This document shows positions 1-14,255 of a DNA stretch of 17,098 nt, piece after piece. The notes beneath the pieces are model-generated. The model saw nothing but the letters and a program-made list of their open reading frames with translations. It was not told the DNA's origin and did not search any database. A program made the translations under genes and the position numbers. The DNA is from an uncultured bacterium (GTDB taxonomy: Bacteria; Lernaellota; Lernaellaia; Lernaellales; Lernaellaceae), in the NCBI GenBank assembly GCA_964534375.1, contig CAZHPN010000136.1:1-17098 (forward strand). Direction: 5' to 3'. Position 1 is the first letter of the stretch. Each line of letters starts with the position of its first letter.

Positions 1-1355
1 GCTGCCAGATGCAGGGCTCGATCTTCGTCGACTGCGACGGCGCCGCGCTGCGCAACCCGATGATCTACATGGACGCGCGGGCCACCAAACAAATCGAGGA
101 CGCGCTCTACACCGGCCCGCTGCGCATCGAGAAAATCAACGCCTTCAAGCTGCTGCCGTCGTTGTGGATCACCGGCGGCATGGCCGCGACCGCGAAAGAC
201 CCATTGTGGAAATATCACTGGGTCCGCGAAAACGAACCCGCCGTGTTCGGCGCGGCGTACAAGTGGCTGGACGTCAAGGACTACCTCGCCGCGCGCTGCA
301 CCGGCCAATTCGCCATGACGCAGGACTCGGCCAATATCACCTTTGTTTACGACACGCGCCCGGGCAAGCTTGGCTGGAGCCGCGAACTCTGCGCGCTGTT
401 CGGCGTCAACCGCGACCATCTGCCGCCCGTGATCAAATCGACCGATCGCGTCGGCGAGCTTGCGGCCGGCGCGGCGCGCGAACTGGGCTTGCGCGAGGGC
501 ACGCCGGTGTTCGGCGGCGGCGGCGACGTGTCGTGCATTTCGCTCGGCGCCGGCTGCACGCGCACGCACGACACGCACATCTACGTCGGCACGTCGGGCT
601 GGGTCGTGGCCAACGTCGAAAAACGCATGGTCGACATCGGCAACTTCATCGCCTCGATTCTCGGCGCCATTCCCGGCCGCTACAACTACGTCGCCGAGCA
701 GGAAACGTCGGGCCTGTGCCTGGCGTGGGTGCGGGATCATCTCGCGCTCGATGAAATCGGCGTCTATCTCGACGGCCGCGGCGGCCCGAAGAACCGCGGC
801 GACCGGCCGCTGTACGAGCTGCTCAACGAGACGGTCGAGCAGACCCCGCCCGGCGCCGGCGGCGTCATCTTCACGCCCTGGCTCCACGGCAACCGCGCCC
901 CGCGCGAAGACCCGTTCGTCCGCGCGATGTTTTTCAACGTCGGCCTGAACACCGGCAAGCGGATGCTCGTGCGCGCGGTGCTCGAGGGCGTCGCCTATCA
1001 CAAGCGCTGGATGCTGGAAGCGATGGAAAAACGCATTCCGCGGCAGAGCAAATTGCGCTTTGTCGGCGGCGGCGCCAAGTCCGAGGTCTGGTGTCAGATC
1101 ATGGCCGATGTCACCGGGCGGACGATCGAGACGATCGAAAACCCGCAGGACGCCGGCGCGGTCGGCGCGGCGATGATCGCCGGCGTCGGGATGGGCGCGA
1201 TCCCGTCGTTCGCGGCGGCCCATTCCTTCGTGCCGCTGAAAAAATCGTACGAGCCGCGCGGCGAATTTCGGGCGCTGTACGACCGCGGATTCGCGGTTTT
1301 CCAAAAACTTTATCAGCAAAACAAGAAATTATTCTGGGCGATGAACCGGGACTGA
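1..1355 (+). CDS. FGGY-family carbohydrate kinase (xylulokinase-like), 5'-truncated by the window edge
   Basis: Frame is open from the window start (C-Q-M-Q-G, resembling the FGGY 'xQMHG' segment). Motifs: IYMDAR, GGGGD, YVGTSGW, PWLHGNRAP, RAVLEGVAY, VGGGAKSEVWCQIMADVTG, GAVGAA. Stop TGA at 1353-1355. Substrate cannot be assigned. Confidence 0.93.
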   Translation, partial: CQMQGSIFVDCDGAALRNPMIYMDARATKQIEDALYTGPLRIEKINAFKLLPSLWITGGMAATAKDPLWKYHWVRENEPAVFGAAYKWLDVKDYLAARCTGQFAMTQDSANITFVYDTRPGKLGWSRELCALFGVNRDHLPPVIKSTDRVGELAAGAARELGLREGTPVFGGGGDVSCISLGAGCTRTHDTHIYVGTSGWVVANVEKRMVDIGNFIASILGAIPGRYNYVAEQETSGLCLAWVRDHLALDEIGVYLDGRGGPKNRGDRPLYELLNETVEQTPPGAGGVIFTPWLHGNRAPREDPFVRAMFFNVGLNTGKRMLVRAVLEGVAYHKRWMLEAMEKRIPRQSKLRFVGGGAKSEVWCQIMADVTGRTIETIENPQDAGAVGAAMIAGVGMGAIPSFAAAHSFVPLKKSYEPRGEFRALYDRGFAVFQKLYQQNKKLFWAMNRD

Positions 1356-1377
1356 TCGTGAAAGGCGGCGGCGCGCG

Positions 1378-2010
1378 GTGGGAAAAAGAGAAAACAATGC
1401 CAAGCGTCAGCGAAAACTCATCTTGCGCGCCGCCGCCGCTCTCTTTTCGAAGAAGGGATACCACAAAGCGTCCGTCGGGGAAATCGCCGAGCGCGCCGGG
1501 GTCGGCAAGGGCACGATTTACCTGTATTTTGCCGACAAGGCGCAGTTGTTCGCGGCGACCGTGACCGAGGGCATGGAAGAGATCATCGGCGGGCTGCGCG
1601 CCGAACTGGAATCCGATCTGCCGTTTCGCGTGCATTTTCAGCGCCTCGTCGAGCGCCACGTGGCGCTGTATTTGCAACACGAGGACCTGACCGGAATTTT
1701 TCACCGCGAGATGTCCAACGGCATCGACCGGCAGACGCTGAAGAAGATCGAGGAAGTGCGCCGCCGTTACGTCGACTTTCTCGCGGACACCCTCGCCGAC
1801 GGCCATCGCCGCGGCTATATCAAGGCGATCGATTTCCATCTCGCGGCCGTCGGCGTGGTCGGCCTGGTCGACGTGTTGTGCAGCGACTATTGGAAAAACG
1901 AACGCCCGCTCGACCGCGGCGAGATCGCGGCCACCGTGTATTCGCTATTGTCGACGGGCCTGACCGCGCCCGAAAAGGCGGCTCCGGCGGCGCGCGGCAA
2001 GACCCGCTAG
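1378..2010 (+). CDS. TetR/AcrR-family transcriptional regulator
   Basis: N-terminal TetR HTH signature: ILRAAAALFSKKGYHKASVGEIAERAGVGKGTIYLYFADKAQLF. GTG start 22 nt after the kinase stop. Confidence 0.95.
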   Translation: MGKRENNAKRQRKLILRAAAALFSKKGYHKASVGEIAERAGVGKGTIYLYFADKAQLFAATVTEGMEEIIGGLRAELESDLPFRVHFQRLVERHVALYLQHEDLTGIFHREMSNGIDRQTLKKIEEVRRRYVDFLADTLADGHRRGYIKAIDFHLAAVGVVGLVDVLCSDYWKNERPLDRGEIAATVYSLLSTGLTAPEKAAPAARGKTR

Positions 2011-2441
2011 ACCCTGTCGACGATCTTGGCCTCGATCAGCACCTGCCCCCAGCCGCCGCAGCCGATGCCCACGTCGTCGCAATGCGCGCGATAAAAAAAT
2101 GGCTTCGGATCGAGGCCTTCATAAATGCGCTCCTGGATCAGCCACATCAGCCGCGCGAACGCCGGCATCAGATAGGGGCAGACCTTTTTCGGCCCGCGGT
2201 GCGCGAGCATGTAGCCTTCGGCCGAAAAGGGAAACTGCTCGCCGACTTTATGTTCGATGTTGCAGCCGTGCGATTCCACAACTTCGAAGATGACGGTCTT
2301 GTTGAGCAGGTCGGCGGCGCGTTCCATGATCCGCTGATTCCGCGGATCGCTCTTGAAGATTTCGAGTTCCTCGTCGGTGTAGCCCAGCCGGTGCTGCATC
2401 AGATTCCACACGCTCTCTCCGACGACGATTTTCTCGCCCAC
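2007..2441 (-). CDS. Conserved hypothetical protein with spaced cysteines, TIGR04076-like putative metal-binding protein
   Basis: AAGGAGG RBS before GTG. Pattern EVVESHGCNIEHKVGEQF...VCPYL...HCDDVGIGCGGWG resembles the TIGR04076 Cys pattern (recalled, not searched). Stop overlaps the tetR stop convergently. Confidence 0.7.
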   Translation of the reverse strand: MGEKIVVGESVWNLMQHRLGYTDEELEIFKSDPRNQRIMERAADLLNKTVIFEVVESHGCNIEHKVGEQFPFSAEGYMLAHRGPKKVCPYLMPAFARLMWLIQERIYEGLDPKPFFYRAHCDDVGIGCGGWGQVLIEAKIVDRV

Positions 2442-2469
2442 GATTCGCCTCCTTCTGTTTGTGCGCCGT

Positions 2470-2910
2470 TCAGTTTTTCGCCGATGCGATCGCCGTTTTC
2501 AGATTCGCCAGCCGCTTGTCGTCCGTCTTCTCGACCATGCGGGCGATGTACCCGGCCCATAATTTCGCCACGCCGTGCGCGTCCATCTCGCATGCGAAAC
2601 GCACGCGCGTGCCCGCGCCTTCCGGCGCGAAGTCGAACGCGAATGACGCGTCCACGCCCATGATCCGCGCTTTCACCGCGTGCCGGCTCGGCCGGTTGTG
2701 CGCCACGACCTCCACCTCGTTGGTCATCTGCCGCCCGCCCTGCCGGCGGACCTGGCGCAGTTTCGCGCCCGCCTCGATCGGCCGCCCGCCGACGACTTCG
2801 CTGCGCACCACCTCCGGCGACCACTTCGGCAGATTCTCCTGATTGGTGACGAAATCGAAGACCTGCTCCGGCGGCGCTTCGATCAATTCCGTCCGGGAAA
2901 ACTTCGTCAT
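2470..2910 (-). CDS. SRPBCC (polyketide cyclase/dehydrase-like, START fold) family protein
   Basis: IEAPPEQVFDFVTNQENLPKW and GAGTRV motifs, C-terminal helix LANLKTAI. GGAGGG RBS supports the ATG at 2910 rather than the ORF-track start at 2952. Confidence 0.9.
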   Translation of the reverse strand: MTKFSRTELIEAPPEQVFDFVTNQENLPKWSPEVVRSEVVGGRPIEAGAKLRQVRRQGGRQMTNEVEVVAHNRPSRHAVKARIMGVDASFAFDFAPEGAGTRVRFACEMDAHGVAKLWAGYIARMVEKTDDKRLANLKTAIASAKN

Positions 2911-3017
2911 GTCCAGCCCTCCTCTCGTTGCGTCTCTACGCATGGATAACATCGACTCGGACTGGCCTTATGTCAATTCCATCTTCGGCGAGATCCGGAA
3001 TGAAATGTAGTTTTTTT

Positions 3018-3091
3018 GACAGGATCAACAGGATCGACGGGATCGATTTATTCTCTGTGTCCTCTGTGAAACCTCCGCGCCCTCTGTGTTT
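3018..3091. repeat. Intergenic ~9-bp-periodic imperfect repeats
   Basis: GACAGGATC-AACAGGATC-GACGGGATC at 3018-3044, then CTCTGTG-type units at 3053-3091. Confidence 0.75.
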
Positions 3092-3106
3092 AAGGCGTCC
3101 TGGCCC

Positions 3107-3940
3107 TCATCGCCCGACGAGGCGGCTGAGCCACGCCGGCCCCATCGGCAATTGCGCGTGAACGTGATCGCCGACGCGCCGCAGCCACGCGAGTTCGTCG
3201 GCGGTCAGCGGCCCGCGATCGAGGGTCTGCAGCGCCTCTTCCATCTGCGCGAAATTTTTCGGGCCGGTCATGCAAACGTCGACGCCCGCCTGCGTGAGCG
3301 CAAAGCGATAGCAATCCGAGGCGCGCGGCGTCGGCGTGTTCGGCGGCATGCGCGCGGGGTCGAGCAACCGGCCCCACCGCGTCGCCGTGTAGATGACGAC
3401 CCCGGGCCGATTGTCCGCCGGCAACTTCGCGAACACCTCGCTCTCGGCGCCGCGGTGCGCCGCGTTGTAACGAACGTGAAAAACGTCGAAACCGCCCTGG
3501 GCCGCGAGCGCCGGGAACAGCGGCCGGTGGTGTCCGGACACGCCCAGCCAACGCACCAGCCCTTTGGCTTTCAACTCGCGGCAAAGGTCGAGAAGGCGTT
3601 CCGCCGGCGGCGCGTTCCACCAACCGAGCAGGAGCACATCCGCATGGTCGAGTTTCAGGTCGCGCAGGAACGACTCGACGCTGCGCCGCAACTGCCAACC
3701 GAAGCGCGTGTAAACCTGCGCGACGATCGCCAGTTGGTCGCGCCGGCCCTGCGCCACGAGGTTCCGGATCGCCTCGGCCATGCCGGGGCTGCGGCGCGAG
3801 CCGTGATAGAAGTAGTTGCAGCCGCGTTCGAACGCCATTTCAAACGCCTTCGCCGGCGCGCCGTAGCCGCCGGACACGCCGAGCCGGCCGACGGTCAGAT
3901 CGGTGTTCCCCAACCGCCGAGCCGCGTGAAAATCGCTCAT
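3107..3940 (-). CDS. Aldo/keto reductase-fold protein with atypical catalytic residues
   Basis: RRLGNTDLTVGRLG, SVESFLRDLKLDHADVLLL, LKAKGLVRWLGVSGH, RYNAAHRGAE, GPKNFAQMEEAL..LDRGPL. GGGAGG RBS before the ATG at 3940. Confidence 0.88.
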   Translation of the reverse strand: MSDFHAARRLGNTDLTVGRLGVSGGYGAPAKAFEMAFERGCNYFYHGSRRSPGMAEAIRNLVAQGRRDQLAIVAQVYTRFGWQLRRSVESFLRDLKLDHADVLLLGWWNAPPAERLLDLCRELKAKGLVRWLGVSGHHRPLFPALAAQGGFDVFHVRYNAAHRGAESEVFAKLPADNRPGVVIYTATRWGRLLDPARMPPNTPTPRASDCYRFALTQAGVDVCMTGPKNFAQMEEALQTLDRGPLTADELAWLRRVGDHVHAQLPMGPAWLSRLVGR

Positions 3941-4085
3941 GCCGTTTCCTCCCGAGCCATCGTTTTGGCCATTATCGACCGCGATTTGCCGCGCGTCCAG
4001 ACGCGGCCGCGATGGCGGCGCCGGCTTGTCACCCCGCGTGCGCTGCGCTAACAATCTGCGCAACGCCGTAATCGCCCGAGGTCCC

Positions 4086-6176
4086 ATGGCCGCCGAAAAA
4101 TCGAACGCCGCGACGCACTCCGCCGGTGAGCGATTTTTCTGGGCCGCGCTGCTGATCGCCGGCGTGGGGCTCTACGCGGTTCGCTTTGTCTCGCATTACT
4201 ACGCGTTCGACGTCGAAACCGCGAAAAACGGCATGCTGGCGCGCGGCATCATCGAAGGCCTGGCGGCGCCGTGGTGGAATTATCAATACAAACCGTTTTC
4301 GCACGGCACGGCGATCTTCGGCCTCGCGCTGACGCCGTTTTTCTATTTCGGCGGCTCGAAATATTTATGGACAAAGCTCCTCTCCGGCGCGATGGTCGTC
4401 CTCGGCGCGATCTTTTGGACGGTCGCCGTGCGGCGTTGCTGGGGCCGCAAGCCGGCGATCGTTTTCGCCCTCCTGTGCATTCTGCCGCCGCCGCGTTTCG
4501 AGGCGCTGCTGCACGCGTCGTGGGCCAATCACAGCGAAAGCCTGTTCTTCACGGGCCTCTTGCTGCTGTTGTTCGCCAACAAGCCCAATCCGTCGGCGCG
4601 GTCCGGCGCGCTGATCGCGGCCGGCCTGCTCGGCGGTTTCGCCTGCTTTTTTTCGTTCGAAAACGCGCTCTTCTTCGCCGCCCTATTGGTCGGGCTTGTC
4701 ATCTGCCACGGCGTCGGTCTGGCGCGCCGCCTTCTGTTCTTGACGATTCCCGCGTTTCTCTTCGCTTTTTCGCCGCACTTTCTGACGCCGACGTCGTTTC
4801 CGCACGCCATGGTCGATCTCGCCCAGGGCGCTTCCGTGAAAGCGTGGTTTTGGGAACGATACGCCTCGTTTTTCAAGATCCTCTGGACGCTCGCCTGCGA
4901 ATACAAATATCCGCTTTTGTCGAAGGCTTTTTTCCTGGCCGCGGTTTTGGGATATTTCCTGCTCGTCTGGCGAACGGTTCGCACGTGGAACGCCGGGTTG
5001 CCGAAGCTCGACCTGCTGGGCGTCGCGCTGCTGGCGCACTCGGTCATTTTCTTCGGGGCCTACGGTTTTTCCCATTTCTACATGGCGCCGAGCGCGGACT
5101 TCAAAGGCTTCGGCGCCCTGCAATACCTGGCGGTGATTTTCCCGTTCTGGCTGGCGTTTCTGTGCCAGGCCGCGCGTTCGGCGCCGGGTTTTCTGGCCGC
5201 GGCGCTGGCCGCGCCGTTTCTTTTCGGCGGCGCGCTCCATGTCGCCGCCGACCCGCTGCCCGACGCCCGCACGCTGCGCTACGGCTGGGACACGCTGACG
5301 TTCTTCCGCGGCGACGACAACGATTATCTCATCTACGTCGCGCTGCCGCCCACGTGGGGCGCCGAATTCGACGAAACGGCGCGGTCGGTCGAAGCGCTGA
5401 CGCCGGCGTGGCGCTGCGACGGGTTCATCTCCGCCGGCGCGGGGCTCTCGTTTTCGCAGGTCCATAACGCGCTCGCCGGCAGCGCATTACGCGACCGCGA
5501 ACAGGCCGGCTGCCTGGTGCGCGGTTTCGCCGGCCACGAAGCCGCCGGTTTCGCCGGCGCCAAGACCATAGAATCGGTCGACGAGTTTCAATTGCGTCGG
5601 GATTTGGCGCGCTTCGCAGCGGACGATCCGCTCTTGGCGCAAAACTACTTCGAGGGCTTTGGCGCCGGCTTGCTGCCCTCGCCGTTCCGCTTTGACTCCG
5701 CGATTTTCGATTTTTACGGCTGGCTGATCGCCGGCGGCGACCTGAATCAAACGTCGCCCGACATTCAGCGCGTTTGCTCGCATATCCGCTATTATTTCGA
5801 ACTCGCCGGGCGCGAGGCGCCCGACCCGGCGGCGGCCCGCGCCTCTCTCTTTCGCGGTTTCGGCAAATGGCTGGGCGCCATTGCGGCCGCCGCCCGCGTC
5901 CGACTCCGGCCGGAGGACGAACCGCCGGAGCGAGCCTTTTTGCGAATGATCGCCGCGCTCACCGGCGCGCCCGTAACCGACGCCGAAATCGCGGCGCTCC
6001 GCCGCGGCGTGGCGGCGGGCGAGGCCCACGCCTTGCAAAATTACGCGAACCGCTTTCAGGTCGTGCCCCCCTTTGACGGCCTCGACCTGCTCATCGACGA
6101 GGCCGCGAAAAACGGCGTGGTCATCAGCAAAGTCGCCGGCCCGCGCGAGGAATATCGGCTCGACGAGAAAAAGTGA
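4086..6176 (+). CDS. Polytopic membrane protein, probable GT-C fold glycosyltransferase (ArnT/PMT-like) with a soluble C-terminal domain
   Basis: Many hydrophobic segments in the first ~390 aa. Acidic D-x-E in the loop after TM1 (YYAFDVETA), plus later NHSES motif. GAGGT RBS before the ATG at 4086. The family call is inferred from topology. Confidence 0.6.
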   Translation: MAAEKSNAATHSAGERFFWAALLIAGVGLYAVRFVSHYYAFDVETAKNGMLARGIIEGLAAPWWNYQYKPFSHGTAIFGLALTPFFYFGGSKYLWTKLLSGAMVVLGAIFWTVAVRRCWGRKPAIVFALLCILPPPRFEALLHASWANHSESLFFTGLLLLLFANKPNPSARSGALIAAGLLGGFACFFSFENALFFAALLVGLVICHGVGLARRLLFLTIPAFLFAFSPHFLTPTSFPHAMVDLAQGASVKAWFWERYASFFKILWTLACEYKYPLLSKAFFLAAVLGYFLLVWRTVRTWNAGLPKLDLLGVALLAHSVIFFGAYGFSHFYMAPSADFKGFGALQYLAVIFPFWLAFLCQAARSAPGFLAAALAAPFLFGGALHVAADPLPDARTLRYGWDTLTFFRGDDNDYLIYVALPPTWGAEFDETARSVEALTPAWRCDGFISAGAGLSFSQVHNALAGSALRDREQAGCLVRGFAGHEAAGFAGAKTIESVDEFQLRRDLARFAADDPLLAQNYFEGFGAGLLPSPFRFDSAIFDFYGWLIAGGDLNQTSPDIQRVCSHIRYYFELAGREAPDPAAARASLFRGFGKWLGAIAAAARVRLRPEDEPPERAFLRMIAALTGAPVTDAEIAALRRGVAAGEAHALQNYANRFQVVPPFDGLDLLIDEAAKNGVVISKVAGPREEYRLDEKK

Positions 6177-6340
6177 CAAGTCGCGGCCGCATCGGCGCCA
6201 ACTATTGAAACTGGCGCGCACGCTGGATACCGATCGGTGGGTTGAATAGGTCGGATAGGCCCCAGAGGTCTCATGGAGGTCCTGATAGAGAACGTCGATT
6301 TTCTCGGATCGACCGATTTTTGCGAACGCATCCTCCGCAC

Positions 6341-6420
6341 AATGGCGAATGGCGAATGGCGAATGCAGAATTGCCGACGTCGCCCGAAATTCGCCATTTG
6401 CCATTCAACATTCTACATTC
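6341..6420. repeat. Heptamer tandem repeat forming an imperfect inverted repeat
   Basis: (AATGGCG)x3 AATGCAG on the left arm and ATTCGCC ATTTGCC ATTCAAC ATTCTAC on the right arm, between two convergent genes. Confidence 0.85.
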
Positions 6421-6553
6421 CGGTTTGCCGTCCCAAGAAACGTATAGTTCGCAGCCATCGGTGGTCGGCAGGCCGAGGTGGCATTTATCGACGATCTCTA
6501 TAGCCCGGGCCCCGCCCCTTCTACTCCGCCGGCCGGCATCGAAGTCTGCGAGT

Positions 6554-7987
6554 TCAAAATTTGATTTGGCCCGTGCGCGCCAACCGGCGGGCGTTGCGAA
6601 CCACGGCTTCCCGCGCCCTTTTCACGTCTGCCGCCGAGGCGGCGCCGGTACGCTCGACTTCCGCGGCGACGATCGGCGCTGCGTGAACCGGCAGGCAACG
6701 GAGCAATTTCTCGCGCGTTGCGTCGTCGGCGGCAGACAATGCGGCGGCCGCATCGCCCACCGCGGTCGCCGCGAGAACGCGGCGCAGGTCGGCGTCTTCC
6801 AGCCGAAGCAGGTCGGTGAAGGCGAGGCGCTGCCGGCCCATCTGCGCGGCCAACTCGGGTTCGTCTTTTGTCAGCTTTTCCAGAATGGCGTCCGCGGTTT
6901 CGTCCGGCAGATCGCCGAGAATGTCAGCGACGGCCGCGACGCCGCCGGCCGGTTCGCCTGGGTCGGCGGCGAGCGCCGCCAACTCGCGGCCGAGAACCTC
7001 GATCACTTCCTCCAACGCGCCGGGCGCCGCCTCGTTCAGCCGCGCGACGCGGCGCACGACTTCGGCGCGCAAATCCGGCGCGAGGCCCGCGACGACTTGC
7101 GCCGCGGCGTCGGGCGGCAGGCGGGCCAGGACAAAAGCGATCGTTTGCGGATGTTCGCGCTGCAGCACCGCGGCGATCGCCCGCGGGTCGCTGCGGCGCA
7201 CGCGTTCAAGTTGACGCTCGAACGCCAGACGCCGCAAGACGTGCCGCGCCTCCGCCGGGTCCAGCGCCTGATCGACGAGGTTCGCGGCGAAGTCGCCGCC
7301 GGCCGGGGCCAGGTGCGCTTCCCGCGTCAGCCGGCGGATGAATTCATCGAGAATCGCCTGCATGGTTTCGGGCGCGACGCCGTCGATGCCGGCGATGGCG
7401 CCGGCCGCAACGCGGACCTCGTCTTCGTTCAGCCGGCGGAAAACCTCGATCGCTAGATCCTCGCCCAGAAACATCAACAAGGCCGCGGCTTTTTTGGCGC
7501 CGGGAACCGTCCGCCGCCCGCCGGCGGTCTCCTCTGGCGCGCGTTCGGGCAGGTTCAGCCAGCGTTTGACGACCATCGCAACCGCTTCGCTATCGTTGGC
7601 CGCAAAGCGCCGCAAATCGGCTTTTTCTTTTTGGAGTCGGCCGAGCGTTTCGGCAGGCGGCTGGCCGGTCGCGGGCGGCCGGAGGTTGGCGGCGGCGCCG
7701 CCTGCGACCAGCGCCTCGAGTTCGCCGATCGTCAGCGCGGCCAGACGTTCGGGCGGCAGGTCATACATTGGCGGGAAATCGAGCGCGGTTTTCACCCGCC
7801 CGGGCCGTCGGTAAACGACGTAGAGCAACAAACAGCCGCAGACCGCGGCGACGATCGCGAAACCGACCACGAGCCACGGCGTGGCCGCGTCGTCGCTCGC
7901 GCCGGAGAACGCTTCGGCGGCGCGCGGCGCGACGACCACCGACCACGCGGCAATCAGCGATAGCAATATCGTGCGCAATGCAGTCAT
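6554..7987 (-). CDS. fliG: Membrane-anchored FliG-like protein: signal peptide + TM + FliF C-terminal-like tail fused to FliG N/M/C domains
   Basis: FliG motifs: GAKKAAALLMFLGEDLAIEVFRRLNEDEV, REHPQTIAFVL, GGVAAVADIL, RRLARTGQI. The ~160-aa N-terminal extension has an AEA-type signal peptide, a TM helix ending VVYRRP, and LRRFAANDSEAVAMVVKRWL. Start set at ATG 7987 because ATG 8035 lies inside the sigma-54 promoter. Confidence 0.88.
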   Translation of the reverse strand: MTALRTILLSLIAAWSVVVAPRAAEAFSGASDDAATPWLVVGFAIVAAVCGCLLLYVVYRRPGRVKTALDFPPMYDLPPERLAALTIGELEALVAGGAAANLRPPATGQPPAETLGRLQKEKADLRRFAANDSEAVAMVVKRWLNLPERAPEETAGGRRTVPGAKKAAALLMFLGEDLAIEVFRRLNEDEVRVAAGAIAGIDGVAPETMQAILDEFIRRLTREAHLAPAGGDFAANLVDQALDPAEARHVLRRLAFERQLERVRRSDPRAIAAVLQREHPQTIAFVLARLPPDAAAQVVAGLAPDLRAEVVRRVARLNEAAPGALEEVIEVLGRELAALAADPGEPAGGVAAVADILGDLPDETADAILEKLTKDEPELAAQMGRQRLAFTDLLRLEDADLRRVLAATAVGDAAAALSAADDATREKLLRCLPVHAAPIVAAEVERTGAASAADVKRAREAVVRNARRLARTGQIKF

Positions 7988-8022
7988 CGACCCTGCGACA
8001 AAAAAGTCCTGAATTACGTGCT

Positions 8023-8040
8023 TAGCAAACACCATGCCGG
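8023..8040 (-). promoter_or_regulatory. Sigma-54 (-24/-12) promoter of the fliG-like gene
   Basis: Minus strand reads CCGGCATGGTGTTTGCTA: GG(8038-8037)-N10-GC(8026-8025), close to the consensus TGGCAC-N5-TTGCW, about 38 nt upstream of the ATG. Confidence 0.85.
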
Positions 8041-8052
8041 CGCGTTTGTTGC

Positions 8053-8080
8053 GAAAACCGCCTCAAATTGGCGGATTTTC
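8053..8080 (-). terminator. Hairpin, possible intrinsic terminator of the upstream Cys-rich gene
   Basis: Minus strand: CCGCC-AATTTGA-GGCGG followed by TTTT. Short stem; it could instead be a protein-binding palindrome. Confidence 0.35.
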
Positions 8081-8106
8081 CCTATGTCGGCGGCGCTTGG
8101 CCTCTG

Positions 8107-8128
8107 GCCCGTCAACATTTTGACGGGC
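8107..8128. promoter_or_regulatory. Palindromic putative enhancer (UAS), FleQ-type GTC-N8-GAC box
   Basis: GCCCGTCAA-CATT-TTGACGGGC with perfect 9-bp arms and core GTCAACATTTTGAC, about 100 bp upstream of the predicted sigma-54 transcription start. Confidence 0.65.
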
Positions 8129-8168
8129 ATGAGCGATCTGTCCAACCGTGCCGATCATGCCGATTAGC

Positions 8169-8222
8169 GTGCATTCGCGGCCTGCCCCGACGTAGCCTCG
8201 GCGAAGTCGGGTGCATTCGCGG
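8169..8222. repeat. 12-bp direct repeat GTGCATTCGCGG flanking a 30-nt hairpin-containing insert
   Basis: Copies at 8169-8180 and 8211-8222. The insert contains CCGAC...GTCGG. The exact reverse complement of the 12-mer occurs at 13337-13348. Confidence 0.75.
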
Positions 8223-8232
8223 TTCCAGCGCT

Positions 8233-9429
8233 TCAATCGACCTTGTTTCGCGGCGTTTCGCGGCGCCGATACGCGGCCATTTCGCGGTCGGCCTCGGCGA
8301 GGATCGTTTGCATCGACCGCGGCGCCGCGTCGCCGTGGACGCAGCCGCAGCCAATGCATTGGCGCGCGCCGCGAATCGGGAACTTGTCGCAAGGCAACAG
8401 GCGGCCCGCGGCGTCGACGCGCCGGCCGTGTACGGCGTCGTTGGGGATGAGCGATTGCTCGGAGCCGCCCTGGTAATGCCAGTTGGTCAGCACGCAGCCG
8501 CCGGCGTTCTCCGGCGTCGGGCACGAACAAATGCAATAGGGCGTGTCGAAGAATTTCATCGCCGAAAAGACGATGCCTTTGGCCAGGTAGAAGGTCGTCG
8601 CCAGTTCGAAGGCCAGTTCCTTGTGCAAGACGAACGACTTGCGATTGGCGTGCAACGACCGAATCCAGGTGGGCGAGTACTTGTCGGCGAGAACGGGCAG
8701 AAATTCCCAATCCGGGTAGGTCGATGCCAGCAACGTCTCCAGCCTGTATTCCGGCGACCCGGCGGCGCGCCCGGCGGCGAGCCGCGCGAACATCTCCCGG
8801 TAGCGCGGCGCGGTATCGGGCAGCGCGCCGTGCGCCTCGATCAGCGCGTCGTAGCGCCCCATGATCCGGTCGAGCAGCAGGCGGTTGTCCGCGTCGGAGG
8901 CGATCGTAAACACGCGGCCGTCGTCGCGGAGCAGGTCGTCCGCCACCTTCGCGCTGCGGCAGGTGCAGTGGCCCATGAACACCAGCGGCGAATCGAGCAG
9001 ATCGCGCCACACGGCTTGCAGCGGCACGACGCGGCCGTTGAGAATGTACTCCAAGCCGATCTCGCGCAGGCGGGCGAACACCTCGCCCGGCATCGCGGCG
9101 ACCCACCACGGCGCGAGCACGAGCAACTCGTGGATGACCGGCGTCGTCATTTCGCGCCGCCAGAGCAGGTAATCGCCGATCGCGTCCGCCATGCGCCGCG
9201 CGACCGAGCGGTTGACCGCCGGCGGCGAGTCCTCGACGATCGCCCGGTACAGGCCTTCGAGCAGAGTTTTCTTCTCGACGCCGGCCAGTTCGCGCGGCAG
9301 GCTCTCCGGATTGGCGCGCAGCCGCACATCTTTGATCCGTTCGACCAGGTTTCGGATTTCGTTCACCGCCATCGGCAGCCGCCGGCGCAGTTCCAGTTCT
9401 TCCGGACTTTCAAATTCGTGATTGGTCAA
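8233..9429 (-). CDS. Cysteine-rich hypothetical protein, probable Fe-S or metal-binding
   Basis: Motifs GRVVPL...MGHCTCRS, KGIVF...YCICSC...GGCV, and C-terminal PCDKF...CIGCGC. GAGG RBS supports the TTG start at 9429; the ORF-track start at 9462 lies inside a repeat element. Confidence 0.7.
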   Translation of the reverse strand: MTNHEFESPEELELRRRLPMAVNEIRNLVERIKDVRLRANPESLPRELAGVEKKTLLEGLYRAIVEDSPPAVNRSVARRMADAIGDYLLWRREMTTPVIHELLVLAPWWVAAMPGEVFARLREIGLEYILNGRVVPLQAVWRDLLDSPLVFMGHCTCRSAKVADDLLRDDGRVFTIASDADNRLLLDRIMGRYDALIEAHGALPDTAPRYREMFARLAAGRAAGSPEYRLETLLASTYPDWEFLPVLADKYSPTWIRSLHANRKSFVLHKELAFELATTFYLAKGIVFSAMKFFDTPYCICSCPTPENAGGCVLTNWHYQGGSEQSLIPNDAVHGRRVDAAGRLLPCDKFPIRGARQCIGCGCVHGDAAPRSMQTILAEADREMAAYRRRETPRNKVD

Positions 9430-9448
9430 GATGGCCTCATTAGGTTTG

Positions 9449-9520
9449 CACCACAGAGGCACAGAGGAAACAGAGATTTCGATGTAAGGTCCTCTCCGTG
9501 TTCTCTGTGGCTCTGCGGTT
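9449..9520. repeat. REP-like imperfect palindrome built of CACAGAG/CTCTGTG units
   Basis: Left arm CACCACAGAGGCACAGAGGAAACAGAG, right arm CTCCGTGTTCTCTGTGGCTCTGCGGTT. Related half-elements at 3053-3091 and 11592-11620. Confidence 0.8.
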
Positions 9521-9571
9521 CATTCTTTATTCATTATCCCAAGCGCAGCGCGGGATTTCCCATTTCGCGGC

Positions 9572-10966
9572 TTATTGGTAGTCGAGCCCTTTTTTCTTCA
9601 GTTTTTCGACGAGCGTCGTGCGTTTCAGGCCCAGCAGTTGGGCCGCGAGGTTCTTGTTGCCGCGCGCCTTCGCCATCGCCGCGGCAATCAGGCGGTTCTC
9701 GAAATCGTCGACCAGGCCGTTGAAATCGACGCCGGCCTCCGGAATCTCGGCCGCCTCGCCCGCGGGATCGATCTTCGCAGCCAGGTATTTTTCCGGCAGA
9801 TCGCCGAGCGCGATGCGGTCGTCCTCCGCCAGGATCACGAGGCGTTCGATCAGGTTCTCCAGTTCGCGGACATTTCCCGGCCACTCGCACCGCCGGAAGA
9901 CATCCAGCAGTTCCGGGCCGAATGGCCGCAATTTGCGATGGCGCAGGCGGCAGAAATTCTCCAGAAAGTAATTGGCCAGCAGCGGGATGTCATCGAGGCG
10001 CTCGCGCAACGGCGGAATGGCGATCGGAATCACCGACAGCCGATAGTACAAATCTTCGCGGAACTTGCCCTGCGCGACCAAATCCTCCAGGCGGCGGTTG
10101 GTGGCGGCGATCACGCGCACGTCGACCTTCTTCGCGCGATTGGCGCCGACGGGCTCGAACTCATGGGATTGCAACACACGCAGCAGCTTGACCTGCAGCG
10201 CCGGGCTCATGTCGCCGATTTCGTCGAGGAACAGCGTCCCGCCGGCCGCGGCCTCGAACCGCCCGATGCGGTTGGTCGTCGCGCCGGTGAACGCGCCCCG
10301 CATGTGGCCGAACAGTTCGGACTCCAGCAGCGTTTCGGGCAGCGCGCCGCAGTTGACCGGCACGAGATAGCGTTCGCGCCGCTTCGAGTTGAAGTGCAGC
10401 GCGCGCGCCACCAGTTCCTTGCCCGTGCCCGACTCGCCCTGAATCAGCACGGTCGAATCGGTGTCGGCGACCTTTTCGATCAGGCGAAACACTTCCTGCA
10501 TCGGCCGCGAATCGCCCACCATGTTTTCGAAGCGGTATTTCTGCCGCAGTTGCGTCTTGAGCGTGACGTTTTCTTGCAGCAGTTCCTGGTAGCGCAGGGC
10601 GCGGTGCAGAACGATCAGCAGTTCTTCGACGCGGAACGGATGCGTCAGGTAGTCGAAGGCCCCGTTTTGCATCGCCTGCACCGCCGCCGGGGCCGCGCCG
10701 GCATCGGCCACGACCACGATCATCGTGCGCGGCGCAATCGTCTTGAATTCGCGCACCAGGTCGAGGCCGGCGGCTTGCGGCGACCGCAGGTCGGCGATCA
10801 CCAGTTCGCAAAGATGCGCGCGAAACGCGTCGAGCGCCTCGGCGCAATCGCCCGATTCGACGACGAGAAACCCCTCGCCCGCAAGATGCCGGCGCAACTC
10901 CGCGTTTTCGGCGCAATCGCCGCCGACCAGTTGAATCGTGGCCCGGCGCGATTCCGTCATCGCCAT
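9572..10966 (-). CDS. Sigma-54-dependent transcriptional activator (receiver-like + AAA+ + Fis-type HTH), FleQ/FlrA-like
   Basis: GESGTGKE Walker A, ESELFGH, GAFTGA, LFLDEIGDM Walker B, FREDLYYRL, WPGNVRELEN, and HTH AAQLLGLKRTTLVEKLKK. Start is ATG 10966 or 10960. Confidence 0.93.
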   Translation of the reverse strand: MAMTESRRATIQLVGGDCAENAELRRHLAGEGFLVVESGDCAEALDAFRAHLCELVIADLRSPQAAGLDLVREFKTIAPRTMIVVVADAGAAPAAVQAMQNGAFDYLTHPFRVEELLIVLHRALRYQELLQENVTLKTQLRQKYRFENMVGDSRPMQEVFRLIEKVADTDSTVLIQGESGTGKELVARALHFNSKRRERYLVPVNCGALPETLLESELFGHMRGAFTGATTNRIGRFEAAAGGTLFLDEIGDMSPALQVKLLRVLQSHEFEPVGANRAKKVDVRVIAATNRRLEDLVAQGKFREDLYYRLSVIPIAIPPLRERLDDIPLLANYFLENFCRLRHRKLRPFGPELLDVFRRCEWPGNVRELENLIERLVILAEDDRIALGDLPEKYLAAKIDPAGEAAEIPEAGVDFNGLVDDFENRLIAAAMAKARGNKNLAAQLLGLKRTTLVEKLKKKGLDYQ

Positions 10967-11029
10967 TGTGGTCGACCCTGGTTCATTTTCCCGTTTCTTC
11001 GCCAGTGACGCGGCGGAGATTAGCAAAGC

Positions 11030-11043
11030 GTCGGAAGTTTGAC
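11030..11043. promoter_or_regulatory. Putative GTC-N8-GAC box upstream of the activator
   Basis: GTCGGAAGTTTGAC, same spacing as the box at 8111-8124. Confidence 0.4.
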
Positions 11044-11126
11044 AAGGAAAAACTGATCGAATTCGCGAAGTTTCCGCAACGCTCAACAAATGGCGGTCTT
11101 GAAATAACGGAACGGCATTTGGTGTC

Positions 11127-11140
11127 GTCAATTTTTTGTC
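11127..11140. promoter_or_regulatory. Putative FleQ-type box upstream of the activator
   Basis: GTCAATTTTTTGTC, one mismatch from GTCAA-N4-TTGAC. Confidence 0.5.
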
Positions 11141-11169
11141 TAAATCGGTCCGGCGTTTCTGAATGCCGC

Positions 11170-11198
11170 TTGACCAGCCCATAAGCTCACGATATAGT
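11170..11198 (+). promoter_or_regulatory. Sigma-70-type promoter of the HesB-like gene
   Basis: TTGACC-N17-TATAGT, 30 nt upstream of the ATG at 11229. Confidence 0.75.
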
Positions 11199-11228
11199 GA
11201 CAACGCTACATGCGAAAGGGAACGCCTC

Positions 11229-11564
11229 ATGCCGAATGTCGACCTCAAACCACTGTCCGTCGTCGTCACCCCGGCCGCCTGCGACGAATTTCGCCACGTC
11301 CTCGCCGAGCCAGGACGCGCGGGCAAAACCATCCGCCTCACGTTTGCCGGCTTCAGTTGAGGCGGGCCCAAACTGGGCCTGGCTCTGGACGAGTCAAACG
11401 ACGCGGAGATCATTTACCGGGAAAACGGTCTGACGATCCTCGGCGACGCCCGCCTTCAGGAACAAGTTCGCAACGGCGGCGGCGTGACCATCGATTTCGC
11501 CCCCGACGGCCGGCGCGGCCGCGGGTTCGTCATTTCGCTGCGGGACGCCGCGGGGTGCTGCTGA
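11229..11564 (+). CDS. IscA/HesB-like protein, probable selenoprotein (in-frame UGA at 11358-11360)
   Basis: Readthrough gives 111 aa: MPNVDLKPLSVVVTPAACDEF...IRLTFAGFS-U-GGPKLGLALDESND...GVTIDF...GFVISLRDAAGCC. U sits at the position of the conserved first Cys of the HesB G-x-C-x-G motif. AAAGGGA RBS and an upstream promoter are present. Confidence 0.88.
11361..11395 (+). promoter_or_regulatory. Candidate bacterial SECIS element
   Basis: Stem-loop GGCTC-TGGAC-GAGTC (11381-11395), loop starting 25 nt after the UGA with G at loop position 2. A second hairpin GGCCCA-AAC-TGGGCC lies just before it. Confidence 0.6.
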
Positions 11565-11591
11565 GCCCGACATTTTCGGCATGATTTTGTA

Positions 11592-11696
11592 CACCGCAGA
11601 GGTCGCAGAGGACGCCGAGGATGGGCGCGTTGGGCGTCGTTCTCGGGACAAACGGCGTCAGCGAACCGGTCACTGTCGACTGACCACTGACCGCTG
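11592..11696. repeat. Short periodic repeats between convergent genes
   Basis: 9-mers CCGCAGAGG/TCGCAGAGG/ACGCCGAGG (11594-11620) and heptamers CACTGTC GACTGAC CACTGAC CGCTG (11671-11696). Confidence 0.65.
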
Positions 11697-11699
11697 TCT

Positions 11700-12185
11700 T
11701 TAGCAGTTCTTGATCTTCGCCACCGTCTGCGTCGTCGACCGGCCAGGCACGAGCGGAAAGCGGATAACTTTGCCGCCGTACGACTCGACGACCTCGCGGC
11801 CCACGACCTGATCGGGGCCCCAGTCGCCGCCCTTCATCAAGACATCCGGACGAATCGCCTCGATCGCGGCCAACGGCGTAGAATCGTCGAAGATCGTCAC
11901 GAAGTCGACGGCGTCGAAAGCCGCGAGCAGTTCGGCGCGTTCCTGCTCGGGATGAATCGGCCGGTCGGCGCCTTTTTCCAGCGTGCGGACCGAACGGTCG
12001 GAATTGATTGCCACGATCAGCAGGTCGCCTGCCGCCTTGGCCGCCTCCAGCAGGCGCACGTGGCCGACGTGCAGCACATCGAAGCAGCCGTTGGTGAAGG
12101 TCACTTTTTTTCCGGCGCGGCGCGCTTCGGCCAGGCGGCCCGGCAACGCGGCGACGGGAACGAGCTTGTCGGTTCGGTATTTCAT
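11700..12185 (-). CDS. rfaE2: D-glycero-beta-D-manno-heptose 1-phosphate adenylyltransferase (standalone RfaE domain II)
   Basis: FTNGCFDVLHVGHV (HxGH), AINSDRSV, KGADRPI, PDVLMKGGDW, GRSTT. Confidence 0.95.
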   Translation of the reverse strand: MKYRTDKLVPVAALPGRLAEARRAGKKVTFTNGCFDVLHVGHVRLLEAAKAAGDLLIVAINSDRSVRTLEKGADRPIHPEQERAELLAAFDAVDFVTIFDDSTPLAAIEAIRPDVLMKGGDWGPDQVVGREVVESYGGKVIRFPLVPGRSTTQTVAKIKNC

Positions 12186-12189
12186 AGCC

Positions 12190-13203
12190 TTAGGGGTAAT
12201 AAATGACTAGTTGGATGGAATGCGTGAAGTCTCTGACGTGATCTACGCTGCCCTGGAACGAGTAGCCGATCGTGCCGTGTTTGTCGACGAAACCGAGGCC
12301 GACCGAGTACATTCGCGCGCCGGAAATCTCGTCGTAGTTGAAACCGCCGCGCAACGACAGCAGTTTGACGATGACGCCCTCGGCGCCGGCCGCAAACACA
12401 AACGTCCCCTTCGGCTGATAAAGCGGGCCGTTGAGTTTTTTCAAGCCGTCGAACACCTTGGTCACTTCCAAGCTGACTGTGGCGTAGTCCATCACGTAGC
12501 CGGCGACGCCCAGCGCCACTTCGCGCCGGACCACCAACGGCTCGTCGTTGCCCAGCAGGTTGCGCCCGGTCAGGCCGACTTTGATCAGGTTGATCGCGTT
12601 GATCAACATGCCCACGTCAAAATCGAACTTGCCTTTGCCGGTCGGATCGAAATTCACCCAGCGCGCCGTCCCGCCGAAGTTCACGATGTTGGCGAAGCCG
12701 CCGGCCGCGGACAAGTCGGCCTGAAAGTCGGTGCCGTGTTTGAACAACTGGTTGGACGGGTCTTGGGTCGTGAACGCCGCGCCGACGGCGACCAGAGGGT
12801 TGACGTAGCCATCGGCGATGGCGAGGTGATACCAATCTTCGCTGAATTTCTTGTTCGCGGGCGCGGTGGGGGTCGTGTTGTTGAAATAGCCGTTGCCGAA
12901 TTCGTTGCTCGATGTTTTCTGAATCAGTTGCGGTTGCAAATAAGGGAAATCGCCGAACAGGTACTGATGGTATTCGTAGTTGATATCGAACCCCATCTGC
13001 TTGTTTTTCGTCAAGGTCGTCAGGCCCGCCGGGTTCCATTCGATCGCGTCCACGTCGTTCGCCACGGCCGTGAACGCCCCGCCCATGCCGATCGGTCTCG
13101 TGCCCCAATACATCTGCGCGTCCGCCGCGCCGACGCCGGCGAGCAAAAACGCCGCAACCAGCGCAAACAGGAGCACTCCGCTTTTTTCCCTATCGACAAA
13201 CAT
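12190..13203 (-). CDS. Outer-membrane beta-barrel protein (PorV/PorQ, UPF0164, FadL/TraF-like plug motif)
   Basis: Signal peptide ending ADA. N-terminal RPIGMGGAFTAVANDVDAIEWNPAGL plug motif, amphipathic beta-strands (LSLRGGFNY, YSVGLGF). Start is ATG 13203 or TTG 13212. Stop lies 4 nt before rfaE2. Confidence 0.8.
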   Translation of the reverse strand: MFVDREKSGVLLFALVAAFLLAGVGAADAQMYWGTRPIGMGGAFTAVANDVDAIEWNPAGLTTLTKNKQMGFDINYEYHQYLFGDFPYLQPQLIQKTSSNEFGNGYFNNTTPTAPANKKFSEDWYHLAIADGYVNPLVAVGAAFTTQDPSNQLFKHGTDFQADLSAAGGFANIVNFGGTARWVNFDPTGKGKFDFDVGMLINAINLIKVGLTGRNLLGNDEPLVVRREVALGVAGYVMDYATVSLEVTKVFDGLKKLNGPLYQPKGTFVFAAGAEGVIVKLLSLRGGFNYDEISGARMYSVGLGFVDKHGTIGYSFQGSVDHVRDFTHSIQLVIYYP

Positions 13204-13478
13204 GCGTGGCAACCTAGCGAACTTGCGTCACGGTGTCAAATTATGGACACTCGCTACGCTGCGAAGATTCAGAAATCCGCATGTCGCGGTGTTTTTAACC
13301 GCAAACGAAGCGGGATTTGTTTTTTTGTTTTTTTTACCGCGAATGCACGCGAACAAGAACGGATAAGCATTGATTGACCGTCCGATCGTGCCGCTTCGCC
13401 TGCATTAGCGGTTCCATTTCTTTCTCTAATCATTCCGGCCATCCATTCTCATTCGCCGTTCCTGCTCGGTCTGCCGCT

Positions 13479-13510
13479 TTCTGACTTCTGACTTCTGGCT
13501 TCTGGCTCCT
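13479..13510. repeat. Heptamer tandem repeat
   Basis: TTCTGAC TTCTGAC TTCTGGC TTCTGGC TCCT just upstream of the tRNA promoter. Confidence 0.8.
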
Positions 13511-13527
13511 TGGCCCGCCACGTTCTG

Positions 13528-13556
13528 TTGACACCGCCATAAGCCCGTGCTAGGAA
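13528..13556 (+). promoter_or_regulatory. Sigma-70-type promoter of the tRNA
   Basis: TTGACA-N17-TAGGAA with TG at the extended -10 position. Confidence 0.6.
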
Positions 13557-13585
13557 AAAGGCCCTTTTTTGTTCTTTTGCAGCGT

Positions 13586-13659
13586 GCGGCTGTAGCTCAG
13601 CTGGATAGAGCGCCGGACTACGAATCCGTCGGCCGGGGGTTCAAATCCCTCCAGCCGCG
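13586..13659 (+). tRNA. tRNA-Arg (anticodon ACG)
   Basis: Acceptor stem GCGGCTG/CAGCCGC, D arm GCTC-AGCTGGATA-GAGC, anticodon loop CT-ACG-AA, T arm GGGGG-TTCAAAT-CCCTC, discriminator G. CCA is not encoded. Confidence 0.97.
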
Positions 13660-13665
13660 CACCTC

Positions 13666-13702
13666 AAAAGCCCTGAAAAACACGAGTTTTCAGGGCTTTT
13701 TT
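13666..13702 (+). terminator. Intrinsic terminator after the tRNA
   Basis: AAAAGCCCTGAAAA-ACACGAG-TTTTCAGGGCTTTT followed by a T-rich run. Confidence 0.85.
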
Positions 13703-13810
13703 CTTATCTTTTGATTTTCTCCCCGGAGGTCAAAAAATGGCTAAAAGGCGCCAAAAATGGCGCTGCCTTGTCAAACGCTTGGCAAACGAAAACGGGCCGG
13801 CGGAATCTTC

Positions 13811-13840
13811 TTGACACTATCTAACAGCTTCGTATATGGT
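13811..13840 (+). promoter_or_regulatory. Sigma-70-type promoter, predicted to give a leaderless mRNA
   Basis: TTGACA-N18-TATGGT, with 7 nt between the -10 and the ATG at 13848 and no SD sequence. Confidence 0.65.
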
Positions 13841-13847
13841 CCGCGCC

Positions 13848-14102: not shown

Positions 14103-14255
14103 CGGAACGTCGAGTGCGTCGATCGGGCGCGGCAATCTTCGCCGTCTCCGTTCCTTGCCTCGCGCGAACGCCGCTGGTAAGATCGTTTCGTCACCACGGG
14201 AATATGCTTTCTGGTCAGGGAAACGAATCCAGACTTCGGGGAGGCACGGAATCCT

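Follow-up and report, generated by a model that had tools for sequence, protein, structure and literature searches.

What does a bacterium without a recognisable flagellum do with a flagellar switch protein whose stator-facing domain lacks the charges that contact the stator? This question is raised by a fliG-like gene on a contig of an uncultured member of the Lernaellaceae (phylum Lernaellota; GenBank assembly GCA_964534375.1, contig CAZHPN010000136.1, here C136). In the following, positions refer to the stretch 1-17,098 of this contig (the window), G000 denotes the genome to which it belongs (6.3 Mb in 381 contigs, 94.4% complete, 3.6% contaminated), and residues are counted from the ATG at position 7987. 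The window is GC-rich, and a frame analysis of GC content at third codon positions (GC3) together with the list of open reading frames (ORFs) leaves a single real gene over positions 6557-6860, the segment treated in a preliminary description of this DNA. On the minus strand the segment encodes the final ~101 residues of an ORF and lies inside a FliG C-domain. The coding sequence extends over 6554..7987 (minus strand; 477 aa plus stop, P0001; GC3 of the frame 0.79), and the database form of the protein likewise has 477 aa. An alternative upstream ATG at 8035 gives an ORF of 493 aa (6554-8035, minus strand). At a distance of 5 nt, the ATG at 7987 is preceded by a weak AGGG, which the ATG at 8035 lacks; the former is therefore the more likely start and is used for numbering. 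Our answer, to which we assign a probability of roughly 0.7, is that the gene encodes a torque-dead, membrane-tethered remnant of the switch complex, kept under relaxed selection in a lineage without a flagellum. The architecture of the protein, its orthology, the gene losses in the genome, the domain-specific divergence and the intact reading frames carry this reading.

The protein consists of the C-terminal tail of FliF fused to a complete FliG. FliG_N, FliG_M and FliG_C follow each other in canonical order, each above the Pfam cut-off (101, 91 and 74 bits): the N-terminal domain (PF14842, residues 162-257, 7217..7504; VIA Z 8.8, root-mean-square deviation (rmsd) 1.0 to 5tdy_B), the middle domain (PF14841, residues 268-340, 6968..7186; VIA Z 11.7 to 3soh_B), which contains the FliM-binding EHPQ motif (residues 278-281, 7145-7156) and the conserved R313, and the C-terminal domain (PF01706, residues 370-476, 6560..6880; VIA Z 13.9, rmsd 1.5 to 1qc7_B). 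The alignments place a Gly-Gly hinge (residues 348-349, 6941..6946) between the latter two; all of these features, and those below unless stated otherwise, are on the minus strand. A short linker joins FliG_N to a 146-residue anchor and FliF tail. Residues 28-146 (7550..7906, ending ...AVAMVVKRWLN) are homologous to the C-terminus of FliF: they match its last ~125 residues in the relatives, namely FliF 423-548 of G010 and G011 and the equivalent parts in G012-G016. For example, ATVGELEAQMAGG...AVTLMVRKWLKED of G010 corresponds to LTIGELEALVAGG...AVAMVVKRWLN of G000. The Trp of the FliF tail is kept, and the same residues also align with the FliF part of an engineered Vibrio FliF-FliG fusion (8z4d). 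This region includes the last FliF membrane helix (residues 36-59, 7811-7882; Kyte-Doolittle maximum 2.75). It is preceded, at a distance of only about 12-20 residues, by a first hydrophobic helix (residues 2-27, 7907..7984; Kyte-Doolittle maximum 1.88), for which AlphaFold2 (AF2) likewise gives a helix 2-27 with a predicted local distance difference test (pLDDT) of 67-75. Residues 1-27 may act as a signal peptide (PRAAEA/F) or else span the membrane as a first helix, and have no match in the relatives' proteins or in the database homologue searches. The basic YRRPGRVK after the strong helix suggests that the FliG part sits in the cytoplasm.

The AF2 model, built with a 140-sequence alignment, has a mean pLDDT of 82.6, with 90-97 in the FliG domains. 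The predicted FliG domains superpose on solved structures with an rmsd of 1.0-1.7; the C-domain aligns with 1qc7_B over 89 residues and with FliG in the MotAB complex 8ucs_H at Z 13.4. The FliF-like helices 112-131 and 133-145 have a pLDDT of 89-92. Their docking on FliG_N is a prediction with the pLDDT as its one source of support, and the Foldseek and VIA single-chain alignments yield no range spanning residues 112-145.

The stator-facing C-domain is where the protein departs from canonical FliGs. The preliminary description, made by eye, had claimed that the charges contacting the stator are lost and MFxF is altered, with EHPQ and the Gly-Gly linker intact, and alignment to canonical FliGs confirms each of these substitutions and retentions. 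Residues 262-475 align gap-free to T. maritima FliG (1lkv; phmmer against PDB, E = 3.9e-35), pairing ALKGA with ALSAA, SKRAA with PVHAA, KDELE with AAEVE, GPVRL with GAASA, and MFVFED with RLAFTD. A MAFFT alignment of the protein with 131 FliG cluster representatives (300-400 aa) and 15 FliGs of the same phylum gives the same picture. Position 418 is S (6734-6736), where the representatives have K in 122 and R in 7 of 131 cases; position 435 is H (6683-6685), with R in 123 representatives; position 442 is A and position 443 is E (6659-6664), with E in 95 and D in 25 representatives at the former and D in 69 and E in 59 at the latter; position 451 is S (6635-6637), with R in 87 and K in 33. The torque helix therefore reads S/H/A/E/S, compared to K/R/E/D/R in all 15 phylum genomes, and one of five charges (acidic) is kept. 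We take these positions to be the equivalents of K264, R281, D288, D289 and R297 of E. coli FliG, the ridge in contact with MotA. The loss is not general to the lineage, since none of the other FliGs in the phylum lacks any of the five charges. At the second altered site (6818-6829) RLAF stands in place of MFxF: the M is replaced by R and the first F by L, the last F is retained, and MF[VI]FED is present in all 15 phylum relatives. E278, H279, P280 and Q281 are intact, as are R313 and both G348 and G349. The NCBIfam fliG equivalog (TIGR00207) scores 195.7 bits, under its cut-off of 226.7. Canonical FliGs (1lkv, 3hjl of A. aeolicus, 8umd and 8wiw of Salmonella) hence share with the fusion protein the same three domains in the same order as well as EHPQ, R313 and Gly-Gly, and T. 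maritima FliG shows no indels relative to it over the M and C domains. They differ in possessing the five charges and MFxF and in lacking the 146-residue anchor and FliF tail, and G000 is without an MS (membrane and supramembrane) ring, stator and export apparatus.

Divergence is distributed unevenly over the domains. Defining a family-conserved column by at least 80% agreement among 139 diverse FliGs, we find that 10 of 10 such columns are kept in the N-domain, 10 of 10 in the M-domain, 2 of 3 in the linker and 10 of 21 in the C-domain. The difference between N plus M (20 of 20) and C (10 of 21) is significant (Fisher p = 1.6e-4), and the loss between these domains is thus confined to C, in agreement with the preliminary description. 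Conserved C-domain residues that are lost include M387, F388, K418, S433, R435, P449, E456 and Q459; those retained are F390, D392, A416, L417, G448, V455, L469 and G473, which look like core or turn positions. Pairwise identities of the N, M and C domains among the other FliGs of family f1 are 64, 82 and 84%, versus 41, 50 and 29% between G000 and these FliGs; the domain that is best conserved in the relatives is therefore the most diverged in G000. The alignment with the FliG of G015 covers 315 residues and contains only 3 gap columns each way, with no frameshift, and the fraction of charged residues is unaltered (0.29 versus 0.30). From these sequence comparisons we read relaxed purifying selection on FliG, with a stator interface that appears to be wholly freed.

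The fusion can be traced to a deletion. The relatives have a separate fliF (~550 aa), directly followed by fliG (~340 aa). In G000 the ~390 periplasmic FliF residues that build the MS ring are absent, and neither the protein nor the genome has a YscJ_FliF Pfam match; a deletion in fliF has joined the last membrane helix and the FliG-binding tail in frame to FliG. The maximum-likelihood tree places the G000 protein within family f1, as sister to G015 (support 100/87), on a terminal branch of 2.69 changes per site compared to 0-0.15 in its siblings. Membership of the clade is more secure than the exact sister relationship, because the G000 row is long and compositionally deviant. A sigma-54-dependent response-regulator activator (9572..10966, minus strand; Pfam Sigma54_activat, Response_reg and HTH_8) serves as anchor for synteny: it is 64-72% identical, over 439-464 aa, to ORFs of G016, G015 and G010 that are located beside the flagellar loci of these genomes. 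In NCBIfam the activator ranks with AtoC/NtrC, under every cut-off, and a FlrA/FleQ type is not established. The ORFs that the relatives carry between the activator and fliF, or just downstream of fliG, have no orthologue in G000; judged by position, these should include flgB/C, fliE and fliH/I. Their only matches are a second sigma-54 activator (~40%) and a putative FliI (29%), both of which are likely paralogues. On phylogeny and gene order, the fusion gene presents itself as the vertical, syntenic orthologue of the relatives' fliG. It had been taken for a paralogue, to be aligned with any second FliG of the same genome. There is none: the fusion gene is the single FliG_C match in G000, and corresponds to the relatives' single fliG.

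Fusions of FliF and FliG are found elsewhere. The databases contain natural full-length FliF-FliG fusions of 790-920 aa (P0011, P0059, P0075 and P0127), which like the engineered 8z4d have the FliF tail in frame with FliG_N and conserve ...VVKRWL.... They differ in that the whole FliF is present with its ring domains, and the torque residues are canonical where inspected. FliF-FliG fusion mutants of Salmonella are a further case. No other ring-less protein of this architecture matched along the N-terminus in the database search, and a literature search found no published ring-less fusion of a FliF tail to FliG, which is not proof that none exists. We also note two proteins, P0055 (593 aa) and P0072 (601 aa), in which a FliM-like middle domain (by eye) and a segment resembling the FliF tail appear to be combined with a full FliG of canonical torque residues.

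The remaining flagellum is missing. The 94.4%-complete genome has no match for Bac_export_2/FlhB, FHIPEP/FlhA, YscJ_FliF, Flagellin_N or Flg_bb_rod. Its four matches to the MotA_ExbB family are all TolQ/ExbB-like in NCBIfam and far below every MotA cut-off, and MotA and MotB are found neither in the window, including the surroundings of the fusion gene, nor in the genome. Searches by tblastn with the relatives' Pfam-named motA (including MotA of G010), fliL, fliO/P/Q/R, flhB, flhA and fliK give no match in G000, and the relatives' FlhF yields a weak partial match of 28% and no orthologue. With a sole FliG and no export apparatus, ring, rod, flagellin or MotA found, there is therefore no motor to brake, and the role of decoy, clutch or brake suggested in the preliminary description loses its object. 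Among the 17 genomes of the phylum (G000 included) this condition is exceptional: FHIPEP is present in 15, being absent from G000 and G009, and Flagellin_N in 14, being absent from the same two and from G011 (84% complete). FliM is found in 15 of the 17, among them G000, and a FliG match in 16, with G009 as the exception. In G009 flagellar genes are absent altogether, and neither FlhG nor Min gives a match. MinC does not exceed the Pfam cut-off in any of the 17 genomes, nor is MinE matched in any of them. The accessible part of one paper on the phylum states nothing on flagella of Lernaellota.

G000 nevertheless retains partners of FliG. Pfam FliM matches the ends of two contigs, C32 and C48. 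These ends overlap by 54 identical bases, followed on C32 (1-47, minus strand) by 47 bases of Illumina adapter (AGATCGGAAGAGC...), therefore fliM is intact and the break is an assembly artefact; the same adapter read-through of 47 bases also terminates contigs C250 and C307. C48 continues from fliM into fliN and, immediately behind it, a gene for a MinD/ParA ATPase, which is the orthologue of flhG (57-68% identical to family members). The corresponding order in G010 is motA-motB-motB-fliL-fliM-fliN-fliO-fliP-fliQ-fliR-flhB-flhA-flhF-flhG-fliA. Since fliN adjoins flhG in G000, the seven intervening genes as well as the upstream motAB-fliL have been removed in cis. As a yardstick, neighbouring orthologues are typically 54-72% identical to family members. 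FliN is 55-76% identical to its relatives (55% over the longest alignment, 61-76% over the conserved C-terminal ~86 residues). FliM is 36-42% identical to same-family relatives and colinear with them, with Pfam scores of 57 and 35 bits versus 171-213 in the relatives, and retains the N-terminal CheY/FlhG-binding motif (VLTQDEIDALM) and the GGXG loop. FlhG keeps the Walker A motif KGGVGKT and a C-terminal amphipathic membrane-targeting helix (KGNIQFLWRRVL), and is without the N-terminal DQAExLRK (DQAxxLR motif) of its relatives. A consensus sigma-54 promoter (TTGGCACagagaTTGCTT) is located ~45 nt upstream of the fliM start; perfect sites of the form TGGCAC-N5-TTGC[AT] occur only 8 times in the genome. 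G000 also has two chemosensory clusters and two genes for methyl-accepting chemotaxis proteins, therefore CheY may still provide input via the FliM N-terminus. Further genes in the vicinity of the fliM-fliN-flhG unit are a sigma-54 response regulator at a distance of ~6 kb (locus L136 on C32, 6960-8429, plus strand), followed by two type IV pilin-like genes (8546-8986 and 9106-9495, both plus strand; KGFTLIELMIVISIIG...), as well as, on C48, a gene for a GGDEF protein that is located 1 kb downstream of flhG and separated from it by a DNA methylase gene.

These results suggest the following course of events. Deletions in the ancestral fliE-fliF-fliG locus would have removed the periplasmic, ring-building part of FliF, and the in-frame fusion of its last membrane helix and tail would have produced a FliG tethered to the membrane and equipped with a FliF docking peptide of its own. 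Without a stator in the genome, the C-domain would have lost its charged ridge and the MFxF hinge with its fold kept, and the N and M domains, which would bind the FliF tail and FliM, would have kept every family-conserved residue. The genes fliM, fliN and flhG would have survived as a compact unit behind the consensus sigma-54 promoter. The fusion protein is presumably still made, and a torque-dead, non-rotating assembly of FliG, FliM and FliN at the membrane could recruit or regulate the MinD-like ATPase FlhG. By analogy with known systems, such an assembly would be likely to position the cell pole or the site of division, or to let FlhG gate sigma-54 transcription, and not to rotate. Because FliG survives on a FliF tail, without stator charges, and is kept together with FliM, FliN and FlhG, the remnant probably still has a job other than swimming, and probably that of an FlhG-binding platform. 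The repurposed scaffold, one of several roles listed in the preliminary description, fits the data; the paralogue, decoy, clutch and brake of the same list are unsupported. Our most specific proposal is a flagellum-independent switch complex, in which the membrane-tethered fusion of FliF tail and FliG would form a non-rotating cytoplasmic platform together with FliM and FliN, and would use FlhG and the sigma-54 activator to mark the pole or the site of division, or to gate transcription. We put this proposal forward tentatively, at odds well short of even.

Two known systems make a platform for FlhG plausible, since FlhG binds both the FliM N-terminus and sigma-54 activators (PMC12826062) and has a role in division in C. 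jejuni (PMC3228812). According to the accessible part of the latter study, polar division in the Min-less C. jejuni is blocked by FlhG acting with FliF, FliM and FliN; individual components of the export apparatus (a type III secretion system, T3SS) are dispensable for this control, FlhF is also required, and fliG is dispensable, as a fliG mutant made few minicells (PMC3228812). G000 resembles this case in that Min is absent, FlhG, FliM, FliN and a membrane part derived from FliF are retained, and the T3SS is absent. It differs in that C. jejuni has a working flagellum, needs FlhF and does not need fliG, whereas G000 has no flagellum and no FlhF orthologue and has kept FliG (PMC3228812). For the wider FlhG network, the portion of the second source available to us describes binding of FlhG to the FliM N-terminus and to sigma-54 master activators of the FlrA/FleQ type, and activation of FlhF by the DQAxxLR helix of FlhG (PMC12826062). 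The likeness consists of the ATPase motifs and membrane helix of the G000 FlhG, the EIDAL of FliM, the sigma-54 activator and the sigma-54 promoter; the differences are the missing DQAxxLR helix, the missing FlhF orthologue and the type of the activator, which is not established (PMC12826062). A third system is the mirror image of G000: non-flagellated Lysobacter enzymogenes keeps a subset of flagellar genes thought, in the accessible text, to have a new role, with the export apparatus kept and fliG, fliM and motAB lost (PMC9927559), the reverse of G000. In literature searches for non-flagellated bacteria that keep FliG, FliM or FliN, we found only this inverse case, and a survey of Actinobacteria makes no mention of relics.

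Several observations weigh against a remnant that is still in use. The fraction of Gly, Ala, Arg and Pro (GARP) is 0.45-0.46 in FliG and FliM of G000, compared to 0.24-0.26 in the relatives; for FlhG, FliN and the activator of G000 it is 0.30-0.34. Since relaxed selection in a GC-rich genome produces such a drift, it is a signature of relaxed constraint over the whole of FliG and FliM, and not of FliG_C alone. The high pLDDT of the model in part reflects the canonical FliGs in its alignment. No close orthologue exists among the sequences searched: the nearest of 1.84 billion representatives in an exhaustive search is 33% identical, a word-indexed protein search returned only the protein itself and three matches at 28-31% identity, and a scan of genome contigs for relatives of the fusion protein gave a best match of 35-38%. 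The sole other copy in a metagenome scan is on contig L038, which is identical over 13.66 kb with all 5 mismatches at the alignment edge; this is the same population, hence one population carries the gene. No promoter is shown for the fusion gene by a scan of the window for sigma-54 sites with up to 2 mismatches, which gave 14 matches versus 17.9 expected. Without the ring-building domains of FliF nothing obvious templates a ring. The accessible part of the C. jejuni study offers a precedent that does not explain the retention of FliG, because there FlhF is needed and fliG is not, and G000 is without FlhF (PMC3228812). Finally, G009 demonstrates that life without flagellar genes, FlhG and Min is possible in this phylum.

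Some of the same observations are explained by a functionless relic, in which the fliF'::fliG fusion and fliM are neutral leftovers that are not yet broken. The extreme branch length and outlying composition of FliG, the GARP drift specific to FliG and FliM, the fliG equivalog score below its cut-off, the reduced FliM Pfam scores and the status of the protein as a singleton across all databases searched are what such a relic predicts. Neutral change of a pseudogene on this scale should, however, bring many frame-breaking indels. Instead, ~60% of the residues are replaced with in-frame length changes only (3 columns each way in 315), and FliM is colinear with its relatives. A relic is also difficult to reconcile with the 20 of 20 conserved columns in the N and M domains, with the preservation of EHPQ, R313, Gly-Gly, the FliF-tail Trp and the GGXG and EIDAL motifs of FliM, with adjacent fliN and flhG at the normal conservation of orthologues, and with a consensus sigma-54 promoter before fliM. 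We therefore regard it as unlikely, though as the most probable of the alternatives.

An artefact of assembly or binning, i.e., a flagellated organism whose missing genes are in the unassembled ~6% or were binned elsewhere, is improbable. The genome is fragmented, with 381 contigs, 94.4% completeness, 3.6% contamination and contig ends that terminate in adapter. The losses, however, lie within contigs: the gap in FliF, where the ring region should be, falls within a single ORF, and no gene separates fliN from flhG. Contig L038 is an independent metagenome contig that has the same sequence over 13.7 kb, and such an artefact would require that more than 30 flagellar genes, spread over several loci, had every one been missed. 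Still less probable is the rotor of a rotary device other than the flagellum, given that no MotA or MotB is found in the genome or beside the gene, that the torque charges are lost and that FliF is without its ring-forming part. An additional FliG without torque competence, which would interfere with an active motor by poisoning, braking or declutching it, would account for lost stator-contact charges next to a retained EHPQ. It can be dismissed: G000 has no other FliG, the gene is the syntenic orthologue of a fliG that is likewise single in the relatives, and searches for an export apparatus, an MS-ring domain, rod proteins, flagellin and MotA found none of them.

Among the neighbours of the fusion gene, a 409-aa Cys-rich protein (P0005; 8233..9462, minus strand) is encoded in the interval towards the activator, at a site that flagellar genes occupy in the relatives. 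It has no Pfam or NCBIfam match, is found in none of the 7 same-family genomes and is specific to this lineage. Its Cys clusters are CTC, CICSC and CIGCGC, and two genomes of another family contain short ORFs that match no more than the C-terminal ~50 residues. On the other side, convergent on the fusion gene, lies the gene of a 745-aa multi-pass membrane protein (3939..6176, plus strand) with a PMT_2/ArnT-like glycosyltransferase lead from the ESM Atlas. It belongs to a family of membrane proteins of 660-745 aa, which has matches on ~30 contigs of G000 and no Pfam or NCBIfam match; since the family is this widespread, a functional link of the 745-aa protein to the fusion gene was not kept. 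Three tandem copies are located just upstream of fliM (L136, 688-2667, 2706-4679 and 4721-6712, all minus strand), at the position at which the relatives carry motAB-fliL. The occurrence of copies beside both relic loci could be due to chance, or the copies could have taken part in the deletions.

The intergenic region upstream of the fusion gene contains a repeat. An element of the form CCGC-AATGCA-GC-AA-CGGCA is shared between 8150-8232 and 13380-13420 (both minus strand), upstream of the fusion gene and of a gene at 12190-13212 (minus strand), respectively. Despite its resemblance to a sigma-54 promoter (TGGAAC-N5-ATGCA), the element is an intergenic repeat dispersed over the genome. We considered TGGAACCGCGAATGCA at 8212-8227 (minus strand), of which a near-copy is found at 13401-13416 (minus strand), as sigma-54 promoter of the fusion gene. 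This reading was dropped because TGGAACCGCGAATGCA belongs to a dispersed repeat: the genome contains 103 copies of GCGAATGCAC, often arranged as tandem 10-mers. Contig L038 carries the window sequence unchanged as far as ~13661, beyond which it diverges before ending. From ~13000 onwards, over the final 4 kb of the window, the GC content drops to 0.54-0.56; a PLD/SNF2 helicase gene lies in this region. The part from 13662 to 17098 may reflect an assembly junction or the boundary of an island.

Studies of Campylobacter and of polar flagellates point to additional roles of the C-ring and FlhG in division and gene control, which in these organisms are inseparable from motility. In G000, evolution has separated these roles: export apparatus, rod, hook, filament, stator and FlhF have disappeared along with the ring-building part of FliF, and the genes that remain are largely those whose products interact with FlhG. 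If the module is active, it would provide a clean system for the non-motility function of the switch complex, and would show which surface of FliG serves which partner. Should the proposed flagellum-independent switch complex be real, the C-ring would have a second function that selection is able to maintain by itself once motility is gone. If the locus is instead a slowly decaying relic, it would still constitute a well-resolved snapshot of the dismantling of a flagellar regulon.

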